Part shown: in pieces, positions 1,792 through 30,235 of the stretch
Numbering within the stretch: position 1 is the first letter of the stretch
Layout of the letters: the number at the start of each line of letters is the position of its first letter
Assembly (NCBI GenBank): GCA_011369465.1
Contig: DRQG01000140.1
Location: forward strand, 1 to 50,780
Source: Caldithrix abyssi
Lineage (GTDB): Bacteria > Calditrichota > Calditrichia > Calditrichales > Calditrichaceae
Length of the DNA: 50,780 nucleotides
Reading direction: 5' to 3'
The notes under the pieces: generated by a model
Database searches by the model: none
What the model saw: the letters and a program-made list of their open reading frames with translations, nothing else
What the model was told of the DNA's origin: nothing
Translations under genes and position numbers: made by a program

Positions 1792-1939
1792 TAAAAGTTG
1801 AGCAATTATTACTCAGTTATTCAAACAGATTCTTATCTTAGATATTTAATCCGGTTTGTATTTCCTTTTAGGGTATAGTTTGGCATATATTTTGAAGATA
1901 GGTTTTGTGGCGTAAACGAACGGATAAACAGGACTCAAA

Positions 1940-3211: not shown

Positions 3212-3244
3212 ATACGTTCCCTCCGATTTTCTTTACTATGCCAA

Positions 3245-4777: not shown

Positions 4778-4791
4778 TTATTACAGAAAGA

Positions 4792-5982
4792 TTGATTCGC
4801 ATGGTCAGAAGATGTCTCATCGTTCTGCTTGCCATCAGTATCCCCTTAATGAAGATTATTGAGATAGGTGGGAAAAAAATAAATTTTGCCGTTTGTGATT
4901 TCGTACTGATCCTAATTCTTATTCATATTATGCTTACTTTCTTAAGCAATAGAAAAGAACTCGTTTTCCCCAACCTGGCTTTGTTTTACTTGTTCGTAGC
5001 GGTTACTTTAATATCCACTCTTGTTTCGATGATCTGGATTGCTAAGACGCAATCGGTTTTTTTCACTATGGTCGAAGTTATTAAATTTTTGGTAGTGGTC
5101 ATTTATTTTTTCATTTTTTATTTTTATCTGGAAACCACAGACGAAATTCATCTTTTTTTCAAATATTGGGTGATTATTTCAGTTTTTGAAGTACTTTTGG
5201 GGCTGTTTGGTCTGGTGACGCATAATCCGGATTTTTCATTGGATTACCGTATCCAGGGCTCATTTGCTAATCCAAATTTATTTGCCATGTATCTCAATGC
5301 GTCCGTTTATATATCGCTGTATTTATATCTCAAGTTTCAACAAAAAATCTACCTTTTTGCCACTCTGTTTTTTATTTTCGGTATCATAGTTAGTGCCTCG
5401 CGCGGCGCGTTGCTTGGGCTGACGCTTTCATTTCTTTTCTTTATTTTATATAAAAACAAATATAAACTGCGCATCATTCTATCGTTGTTTTTTGTGGCAC
5501 TGGTTTTTTCATTTTCCCTGGCCTTCACCGATATCGATTTATCGTATAATATCAGCCGTCTCGAAACCTTTTCAAGACTGGATAGCGAAGACAACCTGGG
5601 TGAACGTACTCATCTCTGGAAAATGGGCATTAAAATTATTGAGAATTATCCCTTTTTAGGGGTGGGTAAAGGAAACTTTATTTTCGCTGCCAATAACTTA
5701 GTGGAAACGGAAGGCACAAAATTTAACGCCGCTCACAACACCTATATTAGTATTGCCAGCGAAACGGGAATTCTAAATCTTTTAATCTTTCTGGGACTGC
5801 TGACTCATGTTTTTTTAAATCTGTTTTGGTACGTTAGGGCAAATAATTTGCTGCCAAAAATTATACTTACCATACTTTTAGCTTTCGTTACTCAGGCTCT
5901 GGTCATGAACATAGAAAATATCCGCTTTTTTTGGGGATTTTTGGCAATAGGTTTTGGCATCGAAAAATATCAACACGCTTAA
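4792..5982 (+). CDS. O-antigen polymerase or ligase-like (Wzy/WaaL family) integral membrane protein.
   Basis: 396 aa polytopic membrane protein with a large loop near the C-terminus (NLGERTHLWKMGIKIIENYPFLGVGKGNF), typical of the Wzy_C/O-antigen ligase domain. Sits between the flippase and the sugar-modifying genes. Confidence 0.6.
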   Translation: MIRMVRRCLIVLLAISIPLMKIIEIGGKKINFAVCDFVLILILIHIMLTFLSNRKELVFPNLALFYLFVAVTLISTLVSMIWIAKTQSVFFTMVEVIKFLVVVIYFFIFYFYLETTDEIHLFFKYWVIISVFEVLLGLFGLVTHNPDFSLDYRIQGSFANPNLFAMYLNASVYISLYLYLKFQQKIYLFATLFFIFGIIVSASRGALLGLTLSFLFFILYKNKYKLRIILSLFFVALVFSFSLAFTDIDLSYNISRLETFSRLDSEDNLGERTHLWKMGIKIIENYPFLGVGKGNFIFAANNLVETEGTKFNAAHNTYISIASETGILNLLIFLGLLTHVFLNLFWYVRANNLLPKIILTILLAFVTQALVMNIENIRFFWGFLAIGFGIEKYQHA

Positions 5983-6040
5983 TCCTAAGCTGAATAGATT
6001 AAGGAACGCATAGTTCAAGGAAAATTAACATTTTAAACCA

Positions 6041-7072
6041 ATGAATCATAACACATCCTCCAATCCCGCCGTATTTGTACTTAGCCTCGATACCGAACTG
6101 GCCTGGGGAAATTTTGTACGGGTGAAAGACCCTCTAAAAAAAACTCAGATGTTTCGTACACGGTATTGTATCCAGCAACTGCTCGATTTGTTGGAAACTT
6201 ACAATATTCGTGCCACTTGGGCGGTGGTTGGCCATTTAATGCTGGATGCCTGTCATCCGGACGAAAACGGTGTGAAACACCCTCAGGCAATCCGGCCTGC
6301 CTATAGCTGGCACCCCGGCGACTGGTTCGAGGACGATCCCTGTACATCATTGCAAGAGGATCCGCTGTGGTACGGTATGGACATCGTAAACAAAATCCGT
6401 TCTTGCGCCGTACCCCAGGAAATTGCTTCCCACTCTTTCGCCCATCAAATATTCGGAGACCCGGGATGCCACTGGGCCTGTGCCGATACGGACATCCGGC
6501 TGGCGGTTTTTGCGGCACAGGCATTAAATATTCAAATGGATTCGTTTGTCTATCCTAAAAACAGCATTGCCCATCAAACCGTACTGGCCAAATATGGGTT
6601 CCGAATATACCGTGGCGAAGGAACAGAGTGGTACAATCGATTCCGCCACCCCTTACTACGAAAAATACTCCATTTTCTGGACGATTTGCTGGCCGTGCCG
6701 CCGGCGGCGGATACGTTGCATCGGGATAACGATAACCTGTTTTATACCAACGGTAATATGATGTACCAGTCCATGGAAGGACTGCGTAAGCTCATTCCGC
6801 TTAGGGCCAGGGTACGAAAGGCAAAAATGGGTATAAATAAAGCGGTTGCGCAGGGAAAAATTTTTCATCTGTGGTTACATCCTTTTAATCTGGCCAGCGA
6901 TCCTACCCGCCTTTTGGCCGGATTGGAAGAAATTTTCAAACATGTAAAAAATCTTGAAGATGCAGGACGATTGGTCAATCTGCCGATGAGAGAGTTGCCT
7001 GCATTCTTTGGCATTAAACCAGACCCAGCCGATGTGCTGATCAATGAAGGTACTGCAAATTACATCCGTTGA
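6041..7072 (+). CDS. Polysaccharide deacetylase-like protein, NodB / carbohydrate esterase 4-like.
   Basis: N-terminal VFVLSLDTELAWG is a variant of NodB motif 1 (TFDDG). HSFAHQ matches the metal-binding NodB motif 2 (H-S/T-x-x-H). Read by motif only. Confidence 0.45.
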   Translation: MNHNTSSNPAVFVLSLDTELAWGNFVRVKDPLKKTQMFRTRYCIQQLLDLLETYNIRATWAVVGHLMLDACHPDENGVKHPQAIRPAYSWHPGDWFEDDPCTSLQEDPLWYGMDIVNKIRSCAVPQEIASHSFAHQIFGDPGCHWACADTDIRLAVFAAQALNIQMDSFVYPKNSIAHQTVLAKYGFRIYRGEGTEWYNRFRHPLLRKILHFLDDLLAVPPAADTLHRDNDNLFYTNGNMMYQSMEGLRKLIPLRARVRKAKMGINKAVAQGKIFHLWLHPFNLASDPTRLLAGLEEIFKHVKNLEDAGRLVNLPMRELPAFFGIKPDPADVLINEGTANYIR

Positions 7073-8234
7073 TGAAACGGTAAAACATCTGCTTTTGCCG
7101 TTGATCGACCGCTTACAGGATAACGGGTTTACCGTGGAAACCGTCTGTTCGCGTGGTCGCTACAGCGATCCGTTACGTCGGCAGGGCTATGTAATCCATA
7201 ATGTGTCTGTTCCCCGTTCCCTATCTCTCTGGGCCATCCTGAAAAATATCCGCGCATTATACCGGCTTATGCGTACAAATCAATATGATATCATTCATGT
7301 ACATGCTCCTGTTTCTGCGTTTACGGGCCGAATAGCGGCCAAATTATATGGGAAGGCCGTAATTATTTATACGGTTCACGGGTTCTATTTTCACGAAAAT
7401 ATGTCTCGTCTTAAATATCATTTGTTTTATACCATCGAGAAAATCCTGGCTTACTGTTGCACCCATATCATGTTTTTCCAGAGTGAAGAGGATTACAAAT
7501 TAGCCAAAGAAAAAAAATTCTTACGCGGCCAAAATCTTTTTTATATCGGTAACGGTGTAGATGTGCACGTGCGGTTTAATCCGGCTTCCGTTTCAGCGGT
7601 AGAAGTGAACAGATTGCGCAGTGAACTTGGCCTGGAACCGGAATACATTGTAGTTACTTTTATAGGCCGTTTGGTATATGAAAAAGGAGTAATGGATTTA
7701 CTAAGAGCTTTTACAGCAATCGACATGAATAACGCAATTTTGTTGGTTGTGGGATCGGCCTTAGCTACGGATCGCGATCGAATACCGGAAGAAGAATTAA
7801 AACCCTATCGAAATCATCCGCGCATTATTTTTACCGGCTTTCGGGAGGACATTTCGCAGATATTGGCTCTTACGGATATTTTTTGTATGCCCTCTTACCG
7901 CGAAGGTAAACCTCGTTCAGTTTTAGAAGCGATGGCCATGAATTGTGCCATTATAGCCGGCAATATACGGGGCTGCCGCGAAGAGGTGATTCCCGGCCGG
8001 AACGGCTTCTTATTTGACATTAAAAATGTTGAAGACTTAAGCGACAAACTGATTTCATTACTTAGTAATATTCCTCAACTTAAAATCTTTAAGAAGAACT
8101 CTCATACTATTGCCCGTGCCGTTTATGATGAAGAAACGGTTCTTAACAAGCAAATGGAAATTTATGAACGACTTCATTCCAAAGGTATAAAAGATTTGGA
8201 GTTCAATATTTCACCTACCAGGATTCATAGCTGA
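7044..8234 (+). CDS. Glycosyltransferase family 1 (GT4-type).
   Basis: C-terminal E-x7-E signature EGKPRSVLEAMAMNCAIIAGNIRGCREEVIPGRNGFLF at about 7903-8016. Overlaps the upstream ORF by 29 nt, so the start may lie further downstream. Confidence 0.8.
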   Translation: MKVLQITSVDETVKHLLLPLIDRLQDNGFTVETVCSRGRYSDPLRRQGYVIHNVSVPRSLSLWAILKNIRALYRLMRTNQYDIIHVHAPVSAFTGRIAAKLYGKAVIIYTVHGFYFHENMSRLKYHLFYTIEKILAYCCTHIMFFQSEEDYKLAKEKKFLRGQNLFYIGNGVDVHVRFNPASVSAVEVNRLRSELGLEPEYIVVTFIGRLVYEKGVMDLLRAFTAIDMNNAILLVVGSALATDRDRIPEEELKPYRNHPRIIFTGFREDISQILALTDIFCMPSYREGKPRSVLEAMAMNCAIIAGNIRGCREEVIPGRNGFLFDIKNVEDLSDKLISLLSNIPQLKIFKKNSHTIARAVYDEETVLNKQMEIYERLHSKGIKDLEFNISPTRIHS

Positions 8235-8244
8235 TAGCTTAACT

Positions 8245-8898
8245 ATGTACAAAAAAATCATATCACAGCGAATTAAGATTGTGTTGGACTTTTGTCTGGC
8301 ATTGATTAGCCTGATACTTTTATCTCCGCTTTTTGTCATCATTTCTCTGGTAATAAAACTGGATAATCCGGGAAAAGTTATTTTTAAACAGGCGCGCGCC
8401 GGAAAAAACGGTAAACTGTTTTATATATATAAATTCCGGACTATGGTAGAGAATGCCGAAAACATGGGCCTGGGTTATGGCATTGCAAAAAATGATCCCC
8501 GTATAACCCGCGTGGGCCGGTTTCTGCGTAAAACAAGCCTGGATGAACTCCCCCAGCTGTTTAATGTGTTAAAAGGAGAGATGAGTTTTGTCGGCCCGAG
8601 ACCCGGTTTGCCTTATCAGGTAGAGCGTTATTCGGCTAAGCAGCATCGACGTTTACTGGTTAAACCGGGTATTACCGGACTGGCTCAGGTAGAAGGACGG
8701 GGGCTGATTCCCTGGTCAAAACGAATCGAGTATGACCTATGGTATATCGATCATTGGTCCCTTTGGCTGGATTTAAAAATCATGCTCAGGACGGTTAAAA
8801 ACATTATTCTTTCCAAAGGATATACCGAAGAACAGACTCCGGATATTATCGAAGATTTTGAAACATCATCACCACAAAACAAAGAGCGTTATGTTTAA
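8245..8898 (+). CDS. Small bacterial sugar transferase, the undecaprenyl-phosphate sugar-1-phosphate transferase that initiates the glycan (PglC/WbaP C-terminal type).
   Basis: Single N-terminal transmembrane helix. Diagnostic [21 protein letters not shown] motif at about 8536-8598. Confidence 0.85.
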
Positions 8899-9595
8899 AC
8901 GATTTAACGACCTGACGGAAGATGATATAAATTGTGATTTGCAAATACATACAAATCGTACCGACGGCCAGGCCGGCATTGAGGAAATCGTAAATCGGGC
9001 ACGGCAGATCGGATTAAAAAGAATTGCCTTCACCGAACATGTCCGTAAAGATACCGACTGGTTTAACGAGTTTGCAGATGAGATTGAAGAGGTACGGCGC
9101 AGGACCGGCGGAATCGAAATATATATCGGATGCGAAACCAAGATACTCAATGTACACGGAACGTTGGATGTGAGCGAGCGCATACTCGATCGCTGTGAGA
9201 TCATTTTGGGTAGTGTGCATCGTTTCCCGGATGGAGCAGGCGGCTATCTGGATTTTACATGGATTACCGAAGATGATTTTTCCCGTATGGAGTTTGAATT
9301 GGCCAGCGCTCTGCTACTTTATGCTCCCATCGATGTACTGGCGCATCCGGGAGGCATGTACGCCCGTCATCATGGAAACTTTCCGCAAAACCTGCTGGCC
9401 GAACTGCTGGAACTGAGTAAAAAACGCAATGTTGCCGTGGAACTGAACGCGTCGTATCTGAAAGATATTAAAACCGTCCTTCCGGTTTACCGCGAAATAA
9501 ATCCTTATGTTTCTATCGGATCGGATGTGCACCGTCTGGAGGAATTGGGACTGTGTCGTGATTCACTGCGTTTACTTGGAGTGGGCCGATCATGA
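8891..9595 (+). CDS. PHP-domain metal-dependent phosphoesterase, possibly the CpsB/YwqE-type phosphotyrosine phosphatase partnering the BY-kinase.
   Basis: CDLQIHTNRTDG and FTEHV His/Asp metal-binding motifs of the PHP fold. The likely true start is ATG 8891, overlapping the upstream stop as ATGTTTAA. The ORF track lists Met 8858. Confidence 0.6.
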   Translation: MFKRFNDLTEDDINCDLQIHTNRTDGQAGIEEIVNRARQIGLKRIAFTEHVRKDTDWFNEFADEIEEVRRRTGGIEIYIGCETKILNVHGTLDVSERILDRCEIILGSVHRFPDGAGGYLDFTWITEDDFSRMEFELASALLLYAPIDVLAHPGGMYARHHGNFPQNLLAELLELSKKRNVAVELNASYLKDIKTVLPVYREINPYVSIGSDVHRLEELGLCRDSLRLLGVGRS

Positions 9596-10644
9596 AAGTA
9601 TTTGTCACCGGTGCAGGCGCCCTTTTAGGACAGGGCATTATCAAAAGCTTGTGCCTTGCCGAAACAAAATATACCATAATTGCGGCTGATCCGAATCCGC
9701 ATGCGGTTGGTCTGTATTGGGCCGATAAAGCCTATCTAATTCCGATGGCCGACAGCGAAGAGTATTTAGAGCGCATCTGGTCGATCCTTAAAGCGGAAAA
9801 ACCGGAAGTCATTCTCATCGGTACGGACGTTGAGCTGCTTATCTTTGCCGAAAATAAAGATTTTATAGAAAATAATACCGGATCCCATGTTATTGTAAGT
9901 CCGCCGCAGGTTATCCGCATCGCCGATGATAAATGGCTCACCTATAAATTTTTAAAAGAAAATGGTTTCCCATACCCGCAATCGGTATTGGCGGATGAAG
10001 CGGATCGCCTGGTCCAAAGCTGCGGTTTCCCGTTGATTGTTAAACCCCGCCGGGGAGCGCGATCTGCCGGTGTACGCACTGTTCGGAACGAACATGAACT
10101 ACGTGAGGCTCTGCAGGCCACATCGGAACCGATTATTCAGGAATGTGTAGCCGACGCCCATCACGAATATACCAGCGGTGTACTCACTCTGGGTACAGAA
10201 ATACGATCCGTCGTTACTATGCGACGCGATCTGCGGGACGGCAACACCTACCGCGCCTATGTTCTACCCGGATTTGAGGCCAATGATATGCTAGCCGAAA
10301 TTGCTAAAAGACTGCGTGGTTTTGGACCGCTCAATCTGCAATTCCGCATGGATGACGGTCAGCCCAAAGTGTTCGAAATAAACGCCCGCTTTTCCGGTAC
10401 AACCCCACTGCGGGCCTATGCCGGTTTTAATGAAGTGGATTTCATGATACGTTACGTTGTAAAGGGAGAAAGAATTCCTCCGCCCAAATTATCCCCGAAG
10501 ATACTGCTGCGTTATCTGGATGAAATCATAATAGAACCGGGTAGTTATGAACATCTGGTTTATAAAAAACAGGGCGAAAATCTCTCCTTCACGAAGCCGG
10601 GGCATCATTTATCCCGAGGCAATAATGACGATGAAAGAATTTAA
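9592..10644 (+). CDS. ATP-grasp domain protein, a carboxylate-amine ligase.
   Basis: Rossmann-like N-terminus MKVFVTGAGALLGQGII. Central ATP-grasp region PLIVKPRRGARSAGVR...EYTSGVL. C-terminal FEINARFSGT resembles the ATP-grasp catalytic loop. Start codon overlaps the upstream stop. Confidence 0.65.
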   Translation: MKVFVTGAGALLGQGIIKSLCLAETKYTIIAADPNPHAVGLYWADKAYLIPMADSEEYLERIWSILKAEKPEVILIGTDVELLIFAENKDFIENNTGSHVIVSPPQVIRIADDKWLTYKFLKENGFPYPQSVLADEADRLVQSCGFPLIVKPRRGARSAGVRTVRNEHELREALQATSEPIIQECVADAHHEYTSGVLTLGTEIRSVVTMRRDLRDGNTYRAYVLPGFEANDMLAEIAKRLRGFGPLNLQFRMDDGQPKVFEINARFSGTTPLRAYAGFNEVDFMIRYVVKGERIPPPKLSPKILLRYLDEIIIEPGSYEHLVYKKQGENLSFTKPGHHLSRGNNDDERI

Positions 10645-11749
10645 AATACCTCTCTCTCAACCGGATATTACCGATTTGGAACGCCGTTATGTAATGGAAG
10701 TGCTGCAAACACCCAACCTGAGTCTTGGCCCGAAACTACCGGAGTTCGAGAAAAAAGTGAGCGATTATGTGGGAACCCGATTTGCCGTTGCGGTGAACAG
10801 TGGCACCAGTGCCTTACATTGCTGTATTAAAAGTTTTGGGATCGGCCCGGGCGACGAAGTGATTACGTCGCCGTTCAGTTTTATTGCCACATCCAATGCC
10901 GCTCTGTTCGAAGGCGCGAAACCGGTTTTTGTCGATATCGATCCGGATACCTACAACATCGATTTCCGGCAAATTGAAGAAAAAATAACCGAACGCACCA
11001 AAGCCATTATTCCCGTTCATGTGTTTGGCCTTCCTGCGGAGATGGATGCTATAAACAAAATTGCTAAGAAATACAATCTTCGTGTCCTCGAAGACGCAGC
11101 AGAAGCTATTGGCGCAGAATACAAAAAGCGTAAGGCTGGCAGCCTGGGTGACTGTGCCGTATTTGCTTTTTATCCTAATAAACAGATAACCACCGGCGAA
11201 GGCGGCATAATTGTAACCGATAATGAATCTTTGGCTGCACTATGTCGCAGTTTGCGCAATCAGGGTCGTGGTGATACCTCCGGCTGGTTACAGCATCAAC
11301 GTCTCGGTTATAATTACCGCCTATCCGATATCAATTGTGCTCTGGGTATCGCCCAGATGGAACGTCTGTCCGAAATATTGGACAAAAGAACGCGCGTAGC
11401 CCAATGGTATCTGGAACAATTACATGATGTGCCCGAATTAACCACCCAGCAAATCCCGGCCAATTGTAAAAAAAGTTGGTTTGTATTTGTGGTAGCCCTT
11501 TCGCCTTTATACAGTAAAAAAAGCCGTGATGAAATATTATCCCATTTAAGAAAGAAAGGTATCGCATGTAGTAATTACTTTAGTCCCATTCATCTGCAAC
11601 CCTTTATGGCCGCCCGGTTCGGTTATAAAGAAGGCGATTTTCCGGTAACGGAAAGTTTGTCCAAACGAACCATTGCCCTTCCATTCTTTGCCAATCTAAG
11701 CAAAGAAAACGTTCGATATGTTACAGACGTTTTGAAAAACAGTCTGTGA
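10625..11749 (+). CDS. DegT/DnrJ/EryC1/StrS-family PLP-dependent nucleotide-sugar aminotransferase (PglE/WbpE-like).
   Basis: FAFYPNKQITTGEGGII contains the PLP lysine in its characteristic context. GTSALH motif also present. Probable start MTMKEF at 10625; the ORF track lists an earlier Met at 10547, inside the previous gene. Confidence 0.88.
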   Translation: MTMKEFKIPLSQPDITDLERRYVMEVLQTPNLSLGPKLPEFEKKVSDYVGTRFAVAVNSGTSALHCCIKSFGIGPGDEVITSPFSFIATSNAALFEGAKPVFVDIDPDTYNIDFRQIEEKITERTKAIIPVHVFGLPAEMDAINKIAKKYNLRVLEDAAEAIGAEYKKRKAGSLGDCAVFAFYPNKQITTGEGGIIVTDNESLAALCRSLRNQGRGDTSGWLQHQRLGYNYRLSDINCALGIAQMERLSEILDKRTRVAQWYLEQLHDVPELTTQQIPANCKKSWFVFVVALSPLYSKKSRDEILSHLRKKGIACSNYFSPIHLQPFMAARFGYKEGDFPVTESLSKRTIALPFFANLSKENVRYVTDVLKNSL

Positions 11750-11814
11750 GAACTCTCCTTCTTAGCGCTTCTGTTTAATCATCATAAGTATTAAGTCCTG
11801 CCATTTTAACCTTT

Positions 11815-13746
11815 GTGAGGTGTGTTATGTCCAGAGTAAGTGTGTTTTTTGAGAATTCTCTGGAGAGAATTCAAAACAAATCCGTAATTATTTTTATTGA
11901 TTTTCAGCTCATCTTTCTCTCTTACATTATTTCTTTCTTCCTGCGCTTTGATTTTATTATTCCATCTCAATTTCTGAAAATGATGTTTTTTACCCTGCCT
12001 GTTGTGCTTGGTATTAAAATATTTACCTACATTTATTTCAATATCCACCGGATAATCTGGAAATTTACCGGTATCAGCGATCTGATTAAAATAATTAAAG
12101 TAAGCTCCTTCAATAATGCACTGTTTGCGCTTATTCTGTTCGCGCTAATCGGGTTTAAAGGATATCCGCGTTCCGTTATTCTTATTGACTGGTTTTTAAC
12201 TATTATGTTTCTCGGAGGCAGCCGTATAGCGTGTCGGCATTTGGCTACCCTTATTAAGGATTCAAATAACCACCGTAACCCCTCTACGACTAAAAAGTGT
12301 ATCATACTCGGTTCAGGTGAAGCAGCCGAAGGACTTATACGCGAGATGGTTTCGGGAAAGATTGATTATATTCCACTGGCCATCCTGGATGATGATCCTA
12401 AAAAGTGGGGCTTGTATTTGCATAATGTAAAGATATATGGTCCTATTAAAGACATCGGGGTACTGTTGGACAAATTTAGAATAGATGAAATCGTTATTGC
12501 CATACCCTCGGCGACACGAGCTCAAATGGCTCAAATTCTAAAGCATTGTAAACCTTGCATTGCTAAAAATATAAAATGCAAAACCGTACCCGGCATCAAC
12601 GAGATCTTATCCGGACTGCATTCCCTTACAAAACTGAGAGAAGTACGTCTGGAAGATCTGATGAATCGGGAACTGGTTATGATTAATCAGGTGGAATTGC
12701 GCAGAGAATTCGCCCATAAAACGGTTCTGGTTACCGGTGCGGCCGGTTCAATCGGTTCCGAGCTGGCCAGACAGATTTACTCCTATAATATTACCAAATT
12801 AATCCTACTCGATCGTAACGAAAACAATTTATTATATCTGGAAAAAGAACTCGAAACCCGATATCCGGAGATACGTTACGAGACCGTGGTTACGGATATT
12901 ACAGACAAAGCCATGGTTGAGAGGGTATTTAAACAATATCGTCCGCAATACATTTTTCATGCTGCGGCATACAAGCATGTACCATATATGGAAAAATTTC
13001 CGGCCGAAGCGGTTAAAAACAATGTGTACGGTACCTACGTATTAGCCGGTCTGGCGGAAAAACACCATGCGACAAAATTTGTCCTTATTTCTACGGATAA
13101 AGCGGTATGCCCAACCAGCGTCATGGGGTGTACGAAACGGGTTGCCGAAATGAGCTTATTACATTTCTTTAAAGATTCCGATACCAGTTTTATAATTGTT
13201 CGTTTTGGCAATGTATTGGGCAGCAATGGCAGTGTCATACCTCTTTTTAAACAACAGATTGAAAAAGGCGGTCCTCTTACTGTAACGCATCCGGAAATGA
13301 GGCGTTATTTTATGACCATCCCGGAAGCGGTAAGCCTGACCTTAAAAGCCGGTTCAATTGGCGAACATGGCGATATTATGATACTGGACATGGGTGAACA
13401 AATTCCGATAATTCAAATTGCCGAAAACCTTATTCGACTATCCGGATATACTCCTTACAAAGATATCCCCATACAGATAAGCGGTATACGGCCCGGCGAA
13501 AAATTGTATGAGGAGTTATGGTATAAAGATGAAAATCCCATTCCCACCAATCATCCCAAAATATTTAAAGCCACACAATTTTTTCATAAGAACGGCCTCG
13601 ATGTAGAAGCCTATAACACGGTCATTCAATACAGCCTTTCAGGAGAACAAAACGATAGAATATTAAAATTGCTACGGCATCTGGTGCCGGACTTTCGTAC
13701 GCCAAAAATCGGCAGAATAACTAAGAAAACCTATATTTACAATTAA
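11815..13746 (+). CDS. Membrane-anchored UDP-GlcNAc 4,6-dehydratase (PglF/CapD/WbpM family polysaccharide biosynthesis protein).
   Basis: Four N-terminal transmembrane helices. NAD-binding VLVTGAAGSIGSEL at about 12724-12765. Catalytic AAAYKHVPYME (YxxxK) at about 12961-12993. Confidence 0.88.
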   Translation: MRCVMSRVSVFFENSLERIQNKSVIIFIDFQLIFLSYIISFFLRFDFIIPSQFLKMMFFTLPVVLGIKIFTYIYFNIHRIIWKFTGISDLIKIIKVSSFNNALFALILFALIGFKGYPRSVILIDWFLTIMFLGGSRIACRHLATLIKDSNNHRNPSTTKKCIILGSGEAAEGLIREMVSGKIDYIPLAILDDDPKKWGLYLHNVKIYGPIKDIGVLLDKFRIDEIVIAIPSATRAQMAQILKHCKPCIAKNIKCKTVPGINEILSGLHSLTKLREVRLEDLMNRELVMINQVELRREFAHKTVLVTGAAGSIGSELARQIYSYNITKLILLDRNENNLLYLEKELETRYPEIRYETVVTDITDKAMVERVFKQYRPQYIFHAAAYKHVPYMEKFPAEAVKNNVYGTYVLAGLAEKHHATKFVLISTDKAVCPTSVMGCTKRVAEMSLLHFFKDSDTSFIIVRFGNVLGSNGSVIPLFKQQIEKGGPLTVTHPEMRRYFMTIPEAVSLTLKAGSIGEHGDIMILDMGEQIPIIQIAENLIRLSGYTPYKDIPIQISGIRPGEKLYEELWYKDENPIPTNHPKIFKATQFFHKNGLDVEAYNTVIQYSLSGEQNDRILKLLRHLVPDFRTPKIGRITKKTYIYN

Positions 13747-20322: not shown

Positions 20323-21273
20323 ATGCTGACAGCTATTATTATTTTCGTTATCCTCTTAGGGTTCATTTATGAATACCGCCTGAGAAAGCCGGATCAGCTC
20401 GTTTTATACGAGTCGCGCGGCGTTGTTAAACAGCGGAAGGGAAAGTTCTATCCCCGTCATTTCAGCCTGGCCATCCCGGCTACCATTCATTCTTCCGCGG
20501 TTAAAGTCGAAGCAGAGGCCAAAGGGAAATTACCGATCCTTGTGCAGGTGGCCCTGGCCTGCGCCGCCTCGCCCTCGCAGCTAAGCGAATTGGTGCGCGT
20601 AGGTGGATGGGACAAAAACGCGGTACCCAAAGCCGCCGCCGAACTGGAAATCCTCATTACAAGTTATGTGAAAGAATTTGCCCAGCAGTTTGAAATAGAA
20701 GAATTAAGCGCCGAAAAACTAACCCAGCATCTGAACAAAAAACTGGGACTAACCGTACACGCTCTGGGGCTGGACATCATCAGTTGTCAGGTGCAAGCGG
20801 TAGATCCGCTGGATGAAGAGATAGCCGAAGCCATGCGCAAACAGGAAGCGGCGCGTATTATGGAGCAAACCGAACAGGCCAATCAAAAAGCGCGGGTAGC
20901 CGCGGCGCAAGCCCGTATCGAAGCGGACGACAAAATCGCACAAACGGAGCACCAACTAGCCTTAAAGAAACTGGCTCTGGAAGAAAAACAGCAGCAAAAA
21001 GAGGCTCTTCTGCAAAAGCAGCGGGTGGAAGAAGAAATCAAACGCCGCAAAATGCAGATGGAAGTGGAAAAGAAAGAGGTGGAGTTGCTTAAGGAAAATC
21101 CCGAGCTGCTGATTCTCAGCCCGCAAATAGCGCGTCTGGCCGAAGCCAGTCAAAGTATGCCCAATGCCAAAACGGTGGTTTCCCTTTCTCCCGAACAGGC
21201 CGCGCAAAGCTCGCAAATCATATCCGTCATTCAGGAGTTGCTGCAGAAAATGGTGGAGAAAAAGAAGGAGTAG
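20323..21273 (+). CDS. Membrane-anchored coiled-coil protein, possibly SPFH/flotillin-like.
   Basis: N-terminal transmembrane helix [17 protein letters not shown]-terminal roughly 120 aa rich in Q/E/K/A heptads ([56 protein letters not shown]), as seen in flotillin. Confidence 0.4.
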
Positions 21274-21279
21274 GATATA

Positions 21280-21750
21280 GTGTGTGGAGTAATGGGGAGC
21301 CGGATGCCGGGAATTTGAAATTAGAAATTGGAAACTGGGAACTGGGAATTGGGAACTGGATGCTTGATGCTGGAAATTGGATACTGGTAGCTGGTAATGA
21401 AATGAAAAATTAAGAATGACTCTGTGATCTCGGCGTTCTCTGCGGTTGGATAAAACAGGGGCAAAGGCACAAAGGCACAAAGTACCGCAAGATTTATCTT
21501 GCGCTCAGGGTAGGCAGACAACCCTTCGACCCCGACAAGCCGGGGCAGGCAGAGCTCAGGGAACGGAGGCTGATAACCGATAGCCAAGAATTTCGAACGC
21601 CGATTAACGACTTAAGAACTGACAACTAACAACTGAAAACTGATAACTGATAACTGACAACTGAAAACTGAAAACTAATTACCGATAGCCAACAGCTAAC
21701 AGCCTATAGCCAAAAGCAGATGACCGACAGCTAATAACTGAAAACTAAAA
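21280..21750 (+). repeat. Composite intergenic repeat element, copy B (full length, three modules).
   Basis: Module 1: GGAAYTGG-type tandem run GGAAACTGGGAACTGGGAATTGGGAACTGGATGCTTGATGCTGG at about 21312-21400. Module 2: conserved core GTTGGATAAAACAGGGGCAAAGGCACAAAG..GCAAGATTTATCTTGCGCTCAGGGTAGGCAGACAACCCTTCGAC at about 21440-21530. Module 3: A-rich AACTGA(C/A/T)A and GATAGCCAACAGCTAACAGCC words at about 21570-21750. Confidence 0.75.
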
Positions 21751-21754
21751 ATCT

Positions 21755-24700
21755 ATGCCTCAAAACAATAACAACATAAACCCGCTGGAGTATTTTCGCT
21801 TACGACCGATCAAGGCGGCCAAGGTTTCCGAAATCAGCGAAGCGACGGCTTCCTCGCCTCTGTCGCCGGCCGAACGGGTTAATTTCCACATCGGACACCC
21901 GCTGCAGGAAGAAGAGCTGAGCGCGTTTTATTTTCGTCTAACCGTTTCCGCAGCGGAAGAAGAGGAACACAGCGAAGCAGGCCGGGCTGATTTTCTGCGC
22001 CGTTGCATTGCCCAATGCGCGCCGTATATGCCGCGCGGCGGGTATGCCGCAGCCGACGGACATCCTCTGCTGGAACATCTGCAAAACTGGCTTAAAGGAC
22101 AGAGCGAGCCGCTGGAATACGAATCCGGCCTTCGTCGGGAAATTATTTTCGGCAGCGGCGGCGTTACCGAAAATTTGCGCGTATTGTTTACCGCCCTGCA
22201 GCGATTCCTGCGCTACCAACCGGCGCAGATTTGCCTTTTCCAAAGCGAGCTACCGGAATTTTTACGTAACTTTCCTCCTTTACAGTTTTTATACTATGAT
22301 GAAGCCTCGTCTCTGCCGGATTATCTGCAAAACTTACTAAACGCCCATCCGCAGCGGCCCCTGTTTTTAATCTATCAAACCGTGCTGCCGGAAGCGGTGC
22401 GGCGTGAACTGCGGGAAATCAGTCTGCAAAAGCCCTTGTTTTTTATCGAGCTGAATGACGCGCCCAATCATTTGTCCATGGCCCGTGAGGCGCGCATGCA
22501 GGAAAGGGTACTACGTTTTCTGACGCCCAAAATATTCCACCCGGCGCTGCAGCATCTGTCCACCATATTCATTTTGGGCAGCCACGATTATCTTAAAGTG
22601 CTGGAAACCGTACACTTCGAACTGAAAGGCACGCCGGCCGCCGCCGAAATAGAATGGCTGACTTATGCGCTGGACAACCATATCCTGCCTCCGGAAAATG
22701 AGTCCTCATCTTTGGAGGCTCCGTCCGACCGGCACCGGCATACCAGCCCGTTCATTTCCACCGGTGAGCGGCTCGTGCGCAAATTCGGGGGATTGGTCAG
22801 CGGACAACCGCTTTTACTGGAAACGGCCGCAACCGTGGTAGAGCAATACAGTCAGCGGCAGCAAGAGCGTTTTTCCTCTTTGTATCGTTTCATAAATCGT
22901 TTACCGTTTGTGGAAAGGGAACAGGGTGAAAACCTCGACCATATTCCGGCCTTAAAAATACTGGACACCCTGCTGAAACAACCGCAGGATAAAGCCTTTG
23001 CCGCATTACTGCAGGAAAACTTCCTGTCCGCCTTCCTGCGTCATCACCCGGAATACGAGATGGAACACTGTGCGGTGGTCAGCGGATCATCGCGTACGGC
23101 GCTGAGCCTTTTGGGAAAACATTGCGGAGTCAGCGAGGTGATCAGTCCGGATTTGGGCTGGACGTACGAACACTGTTTCCCGCGGGTCAGCTTTGTTCCG
23201 CTTAAAAGCGATCTGTCGCTGGACAGCGAGGCTATCCTGCAAACCGTGCAGCGCAAAAGGGAAGCGGACGCCCGCTGGACCGAGTACGGCGCGGTGATAC
23301 TCAACAATCCCCACAACGCCAGCGGCAGTGTTTTCGACAGTAGCCGGATGAGCGAGCTGCTGCGCCGGCTGCTGAAAGCCGGTGTGCGGGTCATCGATGA
23401 TCTGTCTTATCAGAATGTAAACCCCGGCGAAACCTGGCGGGAGATTCCCACGCTCAAGCAGCTCACCGCCGAATTGCGGCGCAACGGTTACCTTTCCGAA
23501 GAACAGGCGGCGCGCCTGATTACCGTTCATTCGCTGTCCAAAACGGACGCCTTTGCCGGAGGTCGTCTGGCCGTTATCGAACTTCCCGAAGAGGATTTGC
23601 GGGATAGCTACCGGAAAATCACCGCGCATATCTACCCTAATATCATGGCCGTTTTGCTGGCCTATCTGTTTTACCGCAATCCGCCGGAAAAACTGAACGC
23701 TTACTGGCATTTGCGCAACCGCATTTTTGACCGCCGCATGCAAGCTATCGAGCAGGCCTTGCAGGAACTGCCCGCCAACCGTAATCCCTACGGCATCAAA
23801 GTGAAACGTCCCTCCGGAAGCATGTATCCGCGCATGGTCATCGAACGCCTGCCCGAGGGGCTTTCGCTGGACTGGCTTTCTTCGGGGCTGGCGGTACAGG
23901 GTATCGGGCTGGTGCCGCTGTCCACGTTTTCGCGCACGGCGGAAGGGTACGAGCTGGGACGTAAATCCTTCCGCTTGACGCTGGGCGGCGCTTCCGGCGC
24001 AGCGGAGCTGAAGAACAAAACCCGCCGCGTGATCATCGACCTGAACCGTATGCTGGCCCGCCAGGATGAAGGATACAACCGCAAACGCTTTGCCGTGCGC
24101 ACAACCATCGACGCCGGCCGGGGCTTCTTCCCCGGCGCCTGGGAAGCCTGGAAAGGCATCGATGAGGAAATCCGCCGTTGGGCCGTGCAGGCGCTGGACT
24201 TTTATCTGAAAAAACAACCCGCAGGCAGCGAACGGCATAAATTATTAACCGAATTCGGGAAAGAGTACCTGCCGCATCGATTGGCCGTGTACCGCCAGCG
24301 GCTGCAGGATCGGCTGCATATTGGCGGCCGGTTAATCGAAGCCGGACGAGGGCCGGGCAAACCGGAACTGCTGGAGGTTCTGGAAAGAGAATTTTACAAA
24401 GAGACGCTGCCGGAACGGGGCGAACGGTTCCGCCGCCGTTTATTTGACCGCACGGTGCACCCCACGCAGATGTATGCTCTGCAAAGCGAAGCGGTCTTTA
24501 ACGGGATAATAGATCGCTTGCTTACGGACGGAGATATTTCGCGAGAGATATTACGCCGCGCCGGAAAAACCCTGGCCGAAGAGTATCTGGGCCGCAACGT
24601 ACCCGTCAGTTCAGTGCAGGAGGCCGAGGAACTGCTGCTTGATCTCAACGACGTCATCGCCGCCGAAGAATTTGCCCGCTGGAACGGTGATTTCCGCTTC

Positions 24701-27316
24701 CGACCCTTCCTTTCCTTTTGGGGCGATTGGGACGGCAGTACGCGGCCTTCCGGGCAGGGGCACCGGCTGGTGGCGGCGGTGGTGATGGAAAATGTAAAAC
24801 GCCAGACCAACATACTCAATACGCTGCTGCAAATCGACGGGACGCTGCCGCTGGACGCCGCTCTGCGCCGGGAGATGCTGGCTTTGCCCGCGCACAACAA
24901 ACGTTTCTGGAATCTGCTGAACCGTATTACCCAATTGACCAATCAATTGGAAAAGCGCTACCGCAGCGTTCTGCCTTTCGAAACGGATTACGGCGCCTGG
25001 CGTAAATGGGCTGTGCGCGTTCATCTGCGCCGCGATCCCGTTACCGTACTCTGGCAGCATAACGACCGATTGGAAAAAAAGATGCGCGAGCTGCGCGCCC
25101 GTCGCCGCGAGATGCTGGAATATTATTTTGCGCTCAATAAACGGCTGCGCAAAACTCTGCACGGGCTTTTGCCGCACATCGAAACGCATCTGCACCATAG
25201 GGAAATCGCCCTGAGCGCGGGCGGCTTTCGCAGTTTGCTGGCCCGTTTTGTGCTCACCCCGCGTATTCATCAAAAAATGATTTTGGCCAAAGACGCCTTT
25301 CCCATCAACACCACAGCGTATAATTTAACCGAGTTGAATGAGATTGCCGGCAAATACGGCAATCCGGGCGTGGTGCTGGCGCTGCAAATCAGTATGTCCA
25401 CACAGGCGGAAGCGTTGATCGCTTTGGACCGCAAACTGAACGCCGAGCGCGAACGAACCCTGCGCCGCGAACCGGAGGCTGACATTCCGTCCATTTGGCT
25501 GGTGCCCTTATTCGAAGGCGCCGACGAGGTAAAAACAATAGACGACTATCTGAACAAGCTGTGGGATTACGCCGTGCAGAGCCGCCGCCTGAACCGGAAG
25601 CCGGTGGAACGGCTGTCCGAACTGCTGTGTGAGTTGTTCATCGCCGGGTCGGATTTAAGCCAGCAGGTCGGCCAGTTGAACGGTGCGGCGTTGTACAGAC
25701 AAGCCAAAATGAAAATCATCCGCTGGCTGGCCCGGCGCGATTTAACCGATCAGGTGCGCATTAAATTGGGCTGCGGCGAACCGATGCAGCGACAGGGCGG
25801 CTACTACGACGCGCTGGCAGGGGCGCCCGCTTTTGAAACAAACCCAAGCGCCGCGCGCCGCCTCAAAGAGTATTTGCCTCCTTCCGCGCAAAAAAGCGCC
25901 GAATTTGCCCGCAGCCCCCTGCGCGGCATTCTGGCCGACGGCGACCTGCGCACCTATCAGAGCAACCTGATGGAGCATTTACGCCGCCTGGGTATGGAAG
26001 AACGCAGCCAGATTTTTTATCACGTTATTCAGACGCAAAAGAACTACCACAGCGAACTGGTTAAGGCGGCCGAACCGCTGTTGGATACCCGTCTGCCCTA
26101 CACGGAACGCGGGTTGGGAAATTTGAAAATGCTTATCGGACTGAACGAAGATGAGGCGTTCGGCCGTTTTCTGGAACTGTACACCCGCAATTTCCGGCAG
26201 ATTCTTTACGGCAGCGAGGAAGATGTGGTGGGCATTCATATCGTGTCCTATTTTATTTCCCGCGCCATGCCGGCCCTGCGCGACCGTCCCACGGTTCGGC
26301 CTTCCGCTACGTCCGGGGAAGTGCGCGGCCAGCAGATTATTCAACGTATCGCCAAAACCCTGCCGCTGGCCAATCACGGCAGTCTGCTGCGGGCCATCGG
26401 TCACAACCGCGCGCAAACCTTCGTTCTGGGCGTCAACCAGCTTACCACCGGCCTGTTCCGCGCCCTGCAGGAATTCAGCAACGAAGAAAGCGGCTCTTCC
26501 CGGATCCACGAACGCGTTTTGCCGCAGTTAGCCGTTTACGATATCCTGCGCGCTCTGCGGCTGTATCACGATCCCGAACTACGCTACGCGGCCAAAATGC
26601 AGGAAGCTTTTTCTCCCGGAAATTCATCCTTTTTGCTGTTGCGCGAAGATGTGGACAGTATTCCCTCGTTTTTATACGGCCTGCGCCGTGAGCTGATCCG
26701 CCGACAGGGATTGGACCCGGCCGATTTTTTTGAAGGCGGACGGTTTAAGCCGCAGCTCTTGCCCGCCCTGCGTCCCGATCTGGCCGTTCTGATGCAGGAC
26801 GACCTGTTTAACACCGACGCGGCCGTTTTCTTTTCAGCCATCGGCGGGAAATGGGATGATACCTGGGAAAAAGAGATACGCCGCCTGCTGAATATCCCCA
26901 GACGCATCCGCGAATGGCGGCAAAAAATATGGACATTGATTGAAGAACCGATATTCCAGCAGACGGCCAGTTTCAGAGAGCTGGCCCGGGCGATTCATTT
27001 CTTTAGCGGGAACAAGGACGCGGCCGAGCTGCCCTTTTCGGCCAGTCCGAGCGAGGTATTGCGTATCGGCAGCAGCGTTACCCAGGCACTGCGCGGCACT
27101 GTAGATGACAGCATGCGCCAGTTTCTGCTTTCCGCGGTACAATTTTTAACCCAACTGCCGGGCAAACTGCCCGAAGTGCCCATCGACATCATCCGCGCCC
27201 TGCGCGACGTGGAACGCATCATTCAAATTGAAGAGCAGGCCCTATCCGCCGCCCAGCAGGACGAGCTGCGCTTCTATCTGCTGCAAATGGCCCGGTTGAC
27301 GGGGGAGAACGGATAG
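21755..27316 (+). CDS. Giant 1853-aa multidomain protein: unknown N-terminal region, a class-I/II PLP aminotransferase-like domain, and a C-terminal divergent phosphoenolpyruvate carboxylase (PEPC)-like module.
   Basis: Aminotransferase motifs: NNPHNASG (23301-23324), VIDDLSY, and HSLSKTDAFAGGRLA with the PLP lysine (23529-23573). Collinear PEPC motifs with near-native spacing: TVHPTQ ~ PEPC TAHPTE (about 24451-24468); FWGDWDGS ~ WMGGDRDGN (24716-24739); LVPLFEGADEV ~ VPLFETLDDL (25499-25531); FIAGSDLSQQVG ~ MIGYSDSAKDAG (25637-25672); KLGCGEPMQRQGG ~ FHGRGGSIGRGG (25763-25801). Uninterrupted 5.56-kb ORF at about 60% GC. Confidence 0.6.
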   Translation: MPQNNNNINPLEYFRLRPIKAAKVSEISEATASSPLSPAERVNFHIGHPLQEEELSAFYFRLTVSAAEEEEHSEAGRADFLRRCIAQCAPYMPRGGYAAADGHPLLEHLQNWLKGQSEPLEYESGLRREIIFGSGGVTENLRVLFTALQRFLRYQPAQICLFQSELPEFLRNFPPLQFLYYDEASSLPDYLQNLLNAHPQRPLFLIYQTVLPEAVRRELREISLQKPLFFIELNDAPNHLSMAREARMQERVLRFLTPKIFHPALQHLSTIFILGSHDYLKVLETVHFELKGTPAAAEIEWLTYALDNHILPPENESSSLEAPSDRHRHTSPFISTGERLVRKFGGLVSGQPLLLETAATVVEQYSQRQQERFSSLYRFINRLPFVEREQGENLDHIPALKILDTLLKQPQDKAFAALLQENFLSAFLRHHPEYEMEHCAVVSGSSRTALSLLGKHCGVSEVISPDLGWTYEHCFPRVSFVPLKSDLSLDSEAILQTVQRKREADARWTEYGAVILNNPHNASGSVFDSSRMSELLRRLLKAGVRVIDDLSYQNVNPGETWREIPTLKQLTAELRRNGYLSEEQAARLITVHSLSKTDAFAGGRLAVIELPEEDLRDSYRKITAHIYPNIMAVLLAYLFYRNPPEKLNAYWHLRNRIFDRRMQAIEQALQELPANRNPYGIKVKRPSGSMYPRMVIERLPEGLSLDWLSSGLAVQGIGLVPLSTFSRTAEGYELGRKSFRLTLGGASGAAELKNKTRRVIIDLNRMLARQDEGYNRKRFAVRTTIDAGRGFFPGAWEAWKGIDEEIRRWAVQALDFYLKKQPAGSERHKLLTEFGKEYLPHRLAVYRQRLQDRLHIGGRLIEAGRGPGKPELLEVLEREFYKETLPERGERFRRRLFDRTVHPTQMYALQSEAVFNGIIDRLLTDGDISREILRRAGKTLAEEYLGRNVPVSSVQEAEELLLDLNDVIAAEEFARWNGDFRFRPFLSFWGDWDGSTRPSGQGHRLVAAVVMENVKRQTNILNTLLQIDGTLPLDAALRREMLALPAHNKRFWNLLNRITQLTNQLEKRYRSVLPFETDYGAWRKWAVRVHLRRDPVTVLWQHNDRLEKKMRELRARRREMLEYYFALNKRLRKTLHGLLPHIETHLHHREIALSAGGFRSLLARFVLTPRIHQKMILAKDAFPINTTAYNLTELNEIAGKYGNPGVVLALQISMSTQAEALIALDRKLNAERERTLRREPEADIPSIWLVPLFEGADEVKTIDDYLNKLWDYAVQSRRLNRKPVERLSELLCELFIAGSDLSQQVGQLNGAALYRQAKMKIIRWLARRDLTDQVRIKLGCGEPMQRQGGYYDALAGAPAFETNPSAARRLKEYLPPSAQKSAEFARSPLRGILADGDLRTYQSNLMEHLRRLGMEERSQIFYHVIQTQKNYHSELVKAAEPLLDTRLPYTERGLGNLKMLIGLNEDEAFGRFLELYTRNFRQILYGSEEDVVGIHIVSYFISRAMPALRDRPTVRPSATSGEVRGQQIIQRIAKTLPLANHGSLLRAIGHNRAQTFVLGVNQLTTGLFRALQEFSNEESGSSRIHERVLPQLAVYDILRALRLYHDPELRYAAKMQEAFSPGNSSFLLLREDVDSIPSFLYGLRRELIRRQGLDPADFFEGGRFKPQLLPALRPDLAVLMQDDLFNTDAAVFFSAIGGKWDDTWEKEIRRLLNIPRRIREWRQKIWTLIEEPIFQQTASFRELARAIHFFSGNKDAAELPFSASPSEVLRIGSSVTQALRGTVDDSMRQFLLSAVQFLTQLPGKLPEVPIDIIRALRDVERIIQIEEQALSAAQQDELRFYLLQMARLTGENG

Positions 27317-27317
27317 G

Positions 27318-27580
27318 ATAAGTGAGAAGTTGTGGGAGTGGAGTGATGGAGTTTTGGATTACTGGGTGGGGGGAGAGCGTAGGAATTAGGAACTTGGAAC
27401 TGGATGCTGGTTTCTGGAAACTGGAAATTGGGAACTTGGAACTGGGAAACAATTACGAATCATTCAATTATTTGTCTGCCGTAGGCACGGTGAATTACGA
27501 ATTAAGGGTGATAGCTTACAGCCAATAGCCAACAGCTAACAGCCCAACAACTCAATAACTTAATAACTGACAACTTTTGT
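27318..27580 (+). repeat. Composite intergenic repeat element, copy C (modules 1 and 3).
   Basis: GGAGTGGAGTGATGGAGTTTTGGATT...GGAACTTGGAACTGGATGCTGG...GGAAATTGGGAACTTGGAACTGGG followed by CCAATAGCCAACAGCTAACAGCC...AATAACTGACAAC. Confidence 0.7.
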
Positions 27581-29789: not shown

Positions 29790-30235
29790 CCGAGTACAGA
29801 GAAGGTGGTGACGGGTGACAGGAATTTGGAAATTAGAAACTCGGAACTGGGAACTGGTTACTTGATGCTGGAAATTTAATGAAAAATGAAGAATAACCCT
29901 GTGTTCCCGGGGAATGCGCTGGTTGGATAAAGCAGGGGCAAAGGCACAAAGTAACGCAAGATTTATCTTGCGCTCAGGGCAGGCAGACAACCCTTCGACA
30001 GGCTCAGGGTTCGTAGGCTGAGCTCTGCCTGTCCCGACAAGTCGGGATCGAAGCCGATGTCCGTTCCCTTCGACCCCGATTTCATCGGAACAGGCAATGC
30101 TCAGGGAACGTAGGCTGAGCTTTGTCGAAGCCGATGGCCGATCCTTCGACTTCGCTCAGGACAAGTAGCTGATAGCCGACAGCTAATCCAATAACCTAAT
30201 AACCTAATAACCAATAACGTAAAGTGGATTCTCGA
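29790..30235 (+). repeat. Composite intergenic repeat element, copy D (three modules).
   Basis: Module 1 at 29822-29880 (GGAAATTAGAAACTCGGAACTGGGAACTGG..GATGCTGGAAAT). Module 2 at 29910-30000 is near-identical to copy B, including the GCAAGATTTATCTTGC hairpin at 29956-29971. Internal GCTCAGGG..CTGAGC hairpins and CCTTCGAC / CGAAGCCGATG words at 29990-30170. Module 3 at 30160-30225 (AATAACCTAATAACC). Confidence 0.75.

Follow-up and report, generated by a model that had tools for sequence, protein, structure and literature searches.

Is the C-terminal part of a long fusion protein from Caldithrix abyssi, which carries recognizable but altered motifs of phosphoenolpyruvate (PEP) carboxylase (PEPC), a decayed copy of that enzyme, a catalyst with a changed reaction or a divergent carboxylase? 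The window analysed here is the whole 50,780-nucleotide stretch of contig DRQG01000140.1 (positions 1 to 50,780, forward strand; GenBank assembly GCA_011369465.1), and the question is raised by one open reading frame (ORF) of 1853 residues in which an aminotransferase dependent on pyridoxal 5'-phosphate (PLP) is joined to a PEPC-type module. A first-pass annotation had flagged four PEPC-like motifs at 24441-25801 and had taken their substituted catalytic residues as a sign of a pseudoenzyme or of changed chemistry. We find that the module, of which the flagged span is only the middle (the whole covers ~24095-27313), is a genuine and strongly constrained member of the PEPC fold; that, together with a family of stand-alone sister proteins, it is best read as a third deep PEPC lineage beside the bacterial/plant and archaeal types; and that, judging from its conserved residues, it is probably a divergent but active enzyme. 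The fusion protein is laid out as follows.

21755-27316, + strand: whole fusion ORF, 1853 aa, from the ORF list; a Lys-less aminotransferase-like domain, then an aminotransferase, then the PEPC-type module
21755-22684, + strand: N-terminal alpha/beta domain, aa ~1-310, as suggested by an AlphaFold2 (AF2) model and hhalign
22940-24079, + strand: class I/II (fold-type I) aminotransferase domain, from a PF00155 match and an intact PLP site
24095-27313, + strand: PEPC-type module, aa 781-1853, an eight-stranded TIM barrel with a helical shell

The C-terminal module has the fold of PEP carboxylase

An AF2 model of residues 781-1853, built from a 45-sequence alignment (pLDDT 85.4, pTM 0.87), contains exactly eight beta-strands among many helices, which form a TIM barrel inside an all-helical shell as in the PEPC superfamily. 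Compared with the PDB using Foldseek, the predicted model gave 29 matches at E<=1e-3, every one of them a PEPC of the plant type or the archaeal type (3ODM), with the next match at E 0.1, and PEPC is hence its nearest structure. At least ten collinear motifs fall on the eight barrel strands and the C-terminus.

Searching databases with the last 1073 residues as query retrieved 722 relatives. The closest relatives of the module belong to an unannotated family of stand-alone proteins (P0255, of 942 aa, P0264 and P0266-P0272), most of ~865-1050 aa; P0264, of 626 aa, is probably a fragment. This sister family is rare, forming eight clusters, and an exhaustive search of representatives found only 211 relatives, sister proteins included. 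Three of its members pass the PF14010 threshold for archaeal-type PEPC (28-30 bits, cut-off 25), and one of these also passes PF00311, the model of bacterial/plant PEPC. Sister proteins resemble the module in HP(S/T)Q, W.D(F/W)DG, PR at beta3, PLFE, AGSDLS, KLG(T/S)GE..RQGG, LRDR and ARAI, but they lack the aminotransferase fusion, keep a Lys at the position of E. coli K546, do not end in Gly and, in the two loci examined, have no adjoining gene of the SPFH type that accompanies the fusion gene (see below). These two loci (L096, 8001-10661, and L098, 8001-10640) lie among housekeeping genes, such as those for nusA, trigger factor, pyrophosphatase and a pilus ATPase. The sister protein may be the PEPC of its host organisms.

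Profile comparisons link these groups. The fusion family aligns to the sister family with an hhalign E of 5e-28 over 733 columns, and the two combined align to ten canonical PEPCs with a score of 62.1 (E 4.9e-6) and to 73 archaeal-type PEPCs with 56.0 (E 1e-5). Since canonical and archaeal-type PEPCs score 59.3 against each other (E 2.9e-6), the distance of the clade from either PEPC type is similar to that between the two types. Reversed-sequence controls scored 20-28 and were not significant. An hhalign comparison of the family with one Ppc sequence also lacked significance; sister-family profiles had no matches in the PDB, and the family member P0151 reached just 12 bits (E 0.073) on PF14010. 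Both fold and profile thus show the region flagged by the first-pass annotation to be truly homologous to PEPC, though it escapes every PEPC model of Pfam and NCBIfam.

The canonical set (n=10) was drawn from E. coli as well as from records of plasmids or chromids. Four 'plasmid' records that supplied canonical ppc genes, L001, L008, L009 and L012, are as large as chromosomes (4.8 Mb in E. coli, 4.1 Mb in both Acinetobacter and Proteus, 2.2 Mb in Neisseria) and are probably mislabelled chromosomes. The archaeal-type set consists of 73 complete ORFs of 474-560 aa from metagenome contigs that were scanned for DNA encoding MSTQHPDN, a motif of archaeal-type PEPC. A 60-residue N-terminal piece of one of these ORFs scored 91.9 bits on PF14010. 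A search for archaeal-type PEPCs with the core alignment returned only fragments of the fusion family.

Conservation of the fusion protein peaks in its active-site motifs

Conservation was counted over 113 full-length homologues with ~50% overall identity and a mean column identity of 58%. All four flagged motifs lie in frame in the single 1853-aa ORF, where they had been placed, and their extended forms DRTVHPTQ, SFWGDWDGSxRPSGQGH, ExFxAGSDLSQQ and RxKxG(S/C)GEPMQRQGGYY, substituted positions included, are invariant or nearly so. Further collinear landmarks are Q(V/I)SMS, PLFE, (L)RTxQS, LRDRPxxRP, LLRAI and the C-terminal GENG. The motifs of the module, all on the + strand, are listed here with E. 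coli PEPC equivalents.

24452-24469, + strand: TVHPTQ, aa 900-905, in frame in the fusion ORF
24446-24469, + strand: DRTVHPTQ, loop after strand beta1, invariant (113/113); H902 corresponds to the catalytic His H138, and Q905 stands at the E141 position
24716-24739, + strand: FWGDWDGS, aa 988-995, in frame in the fusion ORF
24713-24763, + strand: SFWGDWDGSTRPSGQGH, end of beta2, invariant; W989 corresponds to W248 (hydrophobic pocket), D991 to D252 and D993 to D254, with W992 at R253
25253-25273, + strand: LTPRIHQ, barrel strand beta3 (AF2 strand 385-392 in module numbering); R1170 in 113/113
25505-25516, + strand: PLFE, end of beta5, invariant; E1254 corresponds by hhalign to the metal ligand E506; the archaeal type has PL(F/I)E without exception
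25643-25666, + strand: AGSDLSQQ, aa 1297-1304, end of beta6, invariant; D1300 corresponds to the metal ligand D543, with Q1303 at K546
25763-25801, + strand: KLGCGEPMQRQGG, aa 1337-1349, in frame in the fusion ORF
25757-25807, + strand: RIKLGCGEPMQRQGGYY, strand beta7 and glycine-rich lid loop; C/S1340 at R581, R1346 corresponding to R587
25946-25975, + strand: LRTYQSNLME, strand beta8 (AF2 strand 618-622 in module numbering); T1400, Q1402 and S1403 invariant
26276-26302, + strand: LRDRPTVRP, with R, D, R, P and R invariant; R1511 corresponds to R699 (PEP binding)
26384-26419, + strand: LLRAIGHNRAQT, with R, A and I invariant, aligning to SLRAIPW of E. coli and LPRAI of the archaeal type; R1546 corresponds to R713 (PEP binding)
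27302-27313, + strand: C-terminal GENG, G1853 in 113/113; compare (R/Q)N(T/S)G in canonical and ..LG in archaeal-type PEPC

H902, W989, D991, R1170, E1254, D1300, R1346, T1400/Q1402, R1511, R1546 and G1853 are each invariant in the 113 homologues, as are the residues G, G, E, Q, R, Q, G and G of the lid loop. The low pLDDT of this loop in the AF2 model (56) is to be expected for a mobile lid. As judged from these alignments, the flagged motifs are real and under strong selection, and since no other parts of the protein are so well conserved, a decayed pseudoenzyme is disfavoured.

Mapping onto E. coli PEPC

Residues were equated with those of E. coli PEPC by three hhalign routes, using the family alone (direct), the sister family as intermediate, or a merged profile of family and sister. 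All three agree that H138, L504 and E506, D543, R587, R699 and R713 are retained as H902, L1252 and E1254, D1300, R1346, R1511 and R1546, and that E141, M538, K546, H579 and R581 are replaced by Q905, F1295, Q1303, L/M1338 and C/S1340. The profile alignments therefore bear out the annotated change from TAHPTE to TVHPTQ, in which the His is kept and the Glu becomes Gln, the loss of the Lys of GYSDSxKD, and the survival of a single Arg in the glycine-rich loop.

The annotated loss of the Arg of WMGGDRDGN holds in part, as it depends on the alignment. In the sister-mediated and merged alignments W248, D252, D254 and G255 match W989, D991, D993 and G994, and R253 is replaced by W992, whereas the family-only alignment matches R253 instead to R997, an invariant residue four positions further downstream. 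We set the latter pairing aside in favour of the other two routes, and it remains an alternative. The Arg in question had also been labelled R396, which is incorrect: R396 of E. coli belongs to RIDIRQES, and R253 is the Arg found in GDRDG. For R396 itself, hhalign (direct and merged) offers W1100, which we rejected because in the AF2 model it opens a long helix. Strand three of the modelled barrel reads FVLTPRIH (aa 1165-1172) and aligns with LTxR, which is invariant in archaeal-type PEPC; hhalign prefers E. coli LLPRNW for this strand, a segment whose Arg occurs at the tested position in only six of ten canonical sequences. By barrel topology, R1170 is the likely counterpart of R396.

Compared with bacterial/plant PEPC (Ppc, PF00311; E. 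coli 1JQN, Flaveria 3ZGE), the module thus keeps, in collinear order, the equivalents of H138, W248, E506, D543, R587, R699, R713 and the C-terminal Gly, but differs by Q at E141, W at R253, Q at K546, L/M at H579 and S/C at R581, and it has no PF00311 match. Of the bacterial/plant signature formed by E141, R253, K546, H579, R581 and R587, present in 10/10 canonical sequences, R587 (R1346) alone is left. The roles assigned here to K546, R581, R396, R699 and R713 are those we take to be established for PEPC in the work of Kai, Izui and Matsumura. The residues of the allosteric aspartate site, K773, R832 and N881, gave no reliable mapping onto the family.

Archaeal-type PEPC lacks the same residues

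PEPC has two sequence types in reviews, bacterial/plant and archaeal, and the archaeal type is reported to be functionally verified while differing strongly from its bacterial/plant counterpart (PMC8100219). The literature also supports the general PEPC mechanism with a Glu/Asp metal site, a mobile-loop His and a hydrophobic pocket. In our archaeal-type set (n=73) the consensus runs STQHPDN, qMWDxEGK, lTxRvPNP, PL(F/I)E and ARSDPA(L/M)NYG in the first half and G(V/A)G(S)aPFRG, TfT(i)QS, RRxRK...LFGYSR, LPRAI and ...LG in the second, with the invariance of the His-loop motif being by construction, since the set was picked by it. At the four flagged positions these proteins have N for E141, C/S/A for R253, L/M for K546 and V/A/C for R581. 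The substitutions alone therefore do not indicate a pseudoenzyme, and the step taken in the first-pass annotation from altered residues to lost or changed function fails, as the same four positions are non-canonical in the archaeal-type set.

The residues common to both PEPC types are without exception invariant in the fusion family: the His; Trp, Asp and Gly of beta2; the Arg of beta3, as likely counterpart of R396; the two metal ligands; the Arg of the lid; Thr and Gln of beta8; two C-terminal Args; and the terminal Gly (the last in 10/10 canonical, 73/73 archaeal-type and 113/113 family sequences). The comparison thereby yields a short list of residues kept by all PEPC-fold lineages. With the archaeal type (PF14010, TIGR02751, PDB 3ODM) the module shares, in addition, a glycine-rich loop with a single Arg (GxGxxPxxRxG), LTxR on beta3, PLFE, SD, (L)RAI and the C-terminal Gly, and it is likewise without equivalents of E141, R253, K546 and R581; its TxQS on beta8 is common with TfTiQS of the archaeal type and resembles TEQG of canonical PEPC. 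The two are nevertheless distinct: identity is ~16%, the fusion protein reaches no PF14010 or TIGR02751 score, the module is twice as long (1073 aa against ~500 aa, with ~450 unmatched), HPTQ and WGDWDGS stand in place of HPDN and WDxEGK, and, unlike archaeal-type PEPC, the module shares its chain with two aminotransferase-type domains and its gene has an SPFH gene as partner.

The aminotransferase has an intact PLP site

The first-pass annotation correctly described the PEPC-like region as fused to a PLP domain, and this domain (aa ~396-775), in the same ORF, has its catalytic residues intact. PF00155 matches residues 428-743 with 52.1 bits (cut-off 19.7), and the PLP-binding set N521, D548, Y552, S593/S595, K596 (the Schiff-base Lys), R604 and R740 is invariant, with the SLSK motif aligning to SLSK of the aminotransferase AspB (PDB 3EZS). 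An AF2 model of residues 1-800 (pLDDT 87.4, pTM 0.85) matched fold-type I aminotransferases in Foldseek, among them LysN, aspartate aminotransferase (AspAT) and ACC synthase, with a TM-score of ~0.7 normalized to the target. Like class I/II aminotransferases (PF00155; LysN 2EGY, Thermus AspAT 1BJW and ACC synthase), the domain has the full PLP-binding residue set; it differs from them in being preceded by a Lys-less aminotransferase-like domain and followed by the PEPC module. NCBIfam equivalogs assign the aminotransferase domain no substrate specificity (best 24 bits against a cut-off of 415).

Residues 1-310 are well conserved, go unrecognized by Pfam and contain the motifs NFHIG.P, PRGG, SGG..E.LR and NDAPNHLSLAREA without a conserved Lys. 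In the AF2 model residues 130-290 form a run of alternating beta-strands and helices, and the region as a whole is probably a second aminotransferase-like domain lacking the conserved Schiff-base Lys. It may be a degenerate aminotransferase copy that acts as dimer partner within the chain. An internal duplication found no statistical support, as hhalign aligned this region and the aminotransferase domain in fold register without significance (E 0.09).

The fusion gene occurs in 328 species and is paired with an SPFH gene

A public protein (P0001) from a C. abyssi metagenome-assembled genome (MAG) is identical to the fusion protein and bears as its sole label 'pyridoxal phosphate-dependent aminotransferase'. 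In a scan of ~185,000 species representatives, with one genome per species, the fusion gene was found in 328 species, mainly Ignavibacteriota, Calditrichota and Bryobacterales-type Acidobacteriota, with others in KSB1, Solibacterales-type Acidobacteriota and some MAGs labelled Anaerolineae or Bacteroidota. Carrier records without a MAG label are Melioribacter sp. OK-6-Me, Stygiobacter electus and Rosettibacter primus. In 80/80 genome loci the full architecture is kept, with the PEPC part following the aminotransferase part.

Directly upstream and on the same strand, in all 70 genome loci with enough flanking sequence, lies a gene for an SPFH protein.

20323-21273, + strand: SPFH/Band_7-like membrane protein of the window, 316 aa, with an N-terminal transmembrane helix and a long charged coiled-coil tail (Pfam Band_7, E 4.4e-7)
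Other loci: SPFH genes (~316-328 aa, window included) at L002 9025-9993, L004 6996-7982, L005 6996-7976 and L006 7006-7977; also in L016-L095

The SPFH protein of the window is 47% identical to the product of the upstream gene in L002. It has no sequence relative in the PDB at E<=0.1 and no NCBIfam match at E<=0.01, and PADLOC defence models match neither it nor the fusion protein. Flanking genes other than SPFH are not conserved; a link to the leucine/isoleucine operon found upstream in L005 and L006 was rejected, being seen in only one of 80 genome loci.

A possible PEP-to-aspartate enzyme and its alternatives

From the fold, homology, residue conservation, intact PLP site, fusion and gene pair described above we infer substrates, products, domain coupling and a role for the SPFH protein as follows. 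In the most economical mechanism, which we advance tentatively as a possibility somewhat short of probable, PEPC-like chemistry would yield oxaloacetate and the fused aminotransferase would turn it into aspartate. Mg2+ or Mn2+ would be held by E1254 and D1300, and the metal together with R1170, R1511 and R1546 would bind PEP; the glycine-rich lid (R1346) and the mobile loop (H902) would close over the site as in PEPC, phosphate would move to bicarbonate, and the enolate would be carboxylated in a pocket of W989, L1252 and F1295. The unstable oxaloacetate would then be converted to aspartate at K596 with an amino donor such as glutamate, while the Lys-less N-terminal domain would replace the second subunit of the usual aminotransferase dimer and the SPFH partner might tether or scaffold the enzyme at the membrane.

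A number of observations weigh against this reading and against the PEPC assignment beneath it. In the fusion protein Pfam finds PF00155 only (aa 428-743), with no PF00311 at E<=1 and no PF14010; NCBIfam finds weak aminotransferase matches only, with neither NF000584 nor TIGR02751; and phmmer and a 34-sequence family profile, run against all PDB sequences, return aminotransferases and no PEPC chain even at E<=10. The hhalign match of the family alone to canonical PEPC is marginal (score 36.7, E 0.005; reversed control 27.8), at best 604 of the 1073 module residues align to PEPC, leaving ~450 with no PEPC counterpart, and residues were equated through profile alignments and secondary-structure prediction rather than three-dimensional superposition, the equivalence of R396 in particular being ambiguous. 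These failed searches, to which BLASTP against E. coli Ppc adds nothing above noise, would fit a coincidental resemblance of motifs in an unrelated helical domain. Such a coincidence is extremely improbable, and we regard it as refuted by the Foldseek matches to PEPC and the extent of the alignment to it, by hhalign scores above the reversed controls, by sister proteins that pass Pfam PEPC thresholds and by the collinear motifs on all eight strands and the C-terminus.

Other points bear against the proposed chemistry itself. The SPFH pairing has no explanation in a PEP-to-aspartate model. Melioribacter roseus, a MAG of which carries a family member (L050), has both pyruvate carboxylase and PEP carboxykinase on its metabolic map (PMC3534657), and no anaplerotic gap is evident. 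The site is also crowded by family-specific invariant residues that match neither PEPC type (for example W992, RPSGQGH, H1172/Q1173, Q1211, Q1303, E1342, Q1345/Q1347 and H1550/N1551), and these could reflect a different co-substrate. A rather unlikely alternative to carboxylation takes up the same observations: the module would bind metal and PEP (or pyruvate or oxaloacetate) and make a metal-stabilized enolate that reacts with a partner other than bicarbonate or CO2, the product then being aminated; candidates for this partner are another electrophile, another phosphoryl acceptor, and a compound that the PLP domain makes as intermediate or as product. Changed chemistry of this kind would also suit the Gln that the fusion family has fixed where the sister family keeps the Lys of K546, the large family-specific insertions, and an obligate fusion to a PLP enzyme with an obligate SPFH partner, neither of which is known for any PEPC. 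Yet every residue needed by both PEPC types is kept, among them the His whose role is specific to the carboxyphosphate step, and the gene context, in which only the SPFH gene is conserved, hints at no alternative substrate. That the re-tooled fold and the PLP domain would form a new two-step enzyme, making a C-C bond and then aminating the product, with the SPFH protein organizing it at the membrane, we consider unlikely. Finally, the module might be a pseudoenzyme or regulatory scaffold that binds a metabolite (PEP or aspartate) or a partner (the SPFH protein) and so regulates or localizes the aminotransferase. Its escape from all PEPC sequence models, the replacement of several residues invariant in bacterial/plant PEPC and the strict pairing with a membrane scaffold protein are compatible with an assembly role of this sort, but the metal ligands, catalytic His, lid Arg and PEP-binding Args, exactly the residues that decayed sites normally lose, do not vary in any of the 113 sequences, and active archaeal-type PEPC is likewise without the replaced residues, which makes a scaffold decidedly improbable.

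The family would be a third PEPC lineage that Pfam and NCBIfam do not see and whose members are annotated just as 'aminotransferase', as well as the first case of a PEPC fold joined to a PLP enzyme, with a strictly conserved SPFH membrane partner; our literature searches found no description of a PEPC-fold/aminotransferase fusion. No PEPC-fold protein that departs from PEPC in function or in architecture is known to us. If the protein does convert PEP to aspartate, models of carbon and nitrogen flux would change for widespread sediment and subsurface bacteria, and it would be a natural case of unstable oxaloacetate being handed directly to the next enzyme. Should its chemistry differ, it would represent a new reaction class for an old fold, and the re-tooled module would be the first member of the PEPC superfamily with a non-carboxylase function.

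Other features of the window

The gap between the SPFH and fusion genes, 481 bp in the window against ~20-100 bp in other genomes, is unusually long because a composite repeated element sits there. This element occurs in three intergenic regions around the fusion gene and a permease gene (21289-21760, 27382-27544 and 29800-30191); its core is 85-94% identical between 21465-21573 and 29934-30118 and is flanked by repeat arrays of 7-nt periodicity (GGAACTG/GAAACTG-like, then ACTGAAA/ACTGATA-like). The element has no Rfam match, and the window as a whole contains none. The fusion gene is the G+C-richest part of the window, with 0.556 and 0.579 in the 2-kb bins of 22001-26000 and 0.35-0.53 in the others. 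Positions 91-13746 hold a polysaccharide biosynthesis cluster unrelated to the fusion gene, with genes for a tyrosine-kinase-type chain-length regulator, a MurJ/MatE-like flippase, a Wzy-like polymerase, glycosyltransferases, a sugar transferase, a PHP phosphatase, an ATP-grasp enzyme, a DegT aminotransferase and a Polysacc_synt_2 dehydratase. The remainder of the window is ordinary chromosome.

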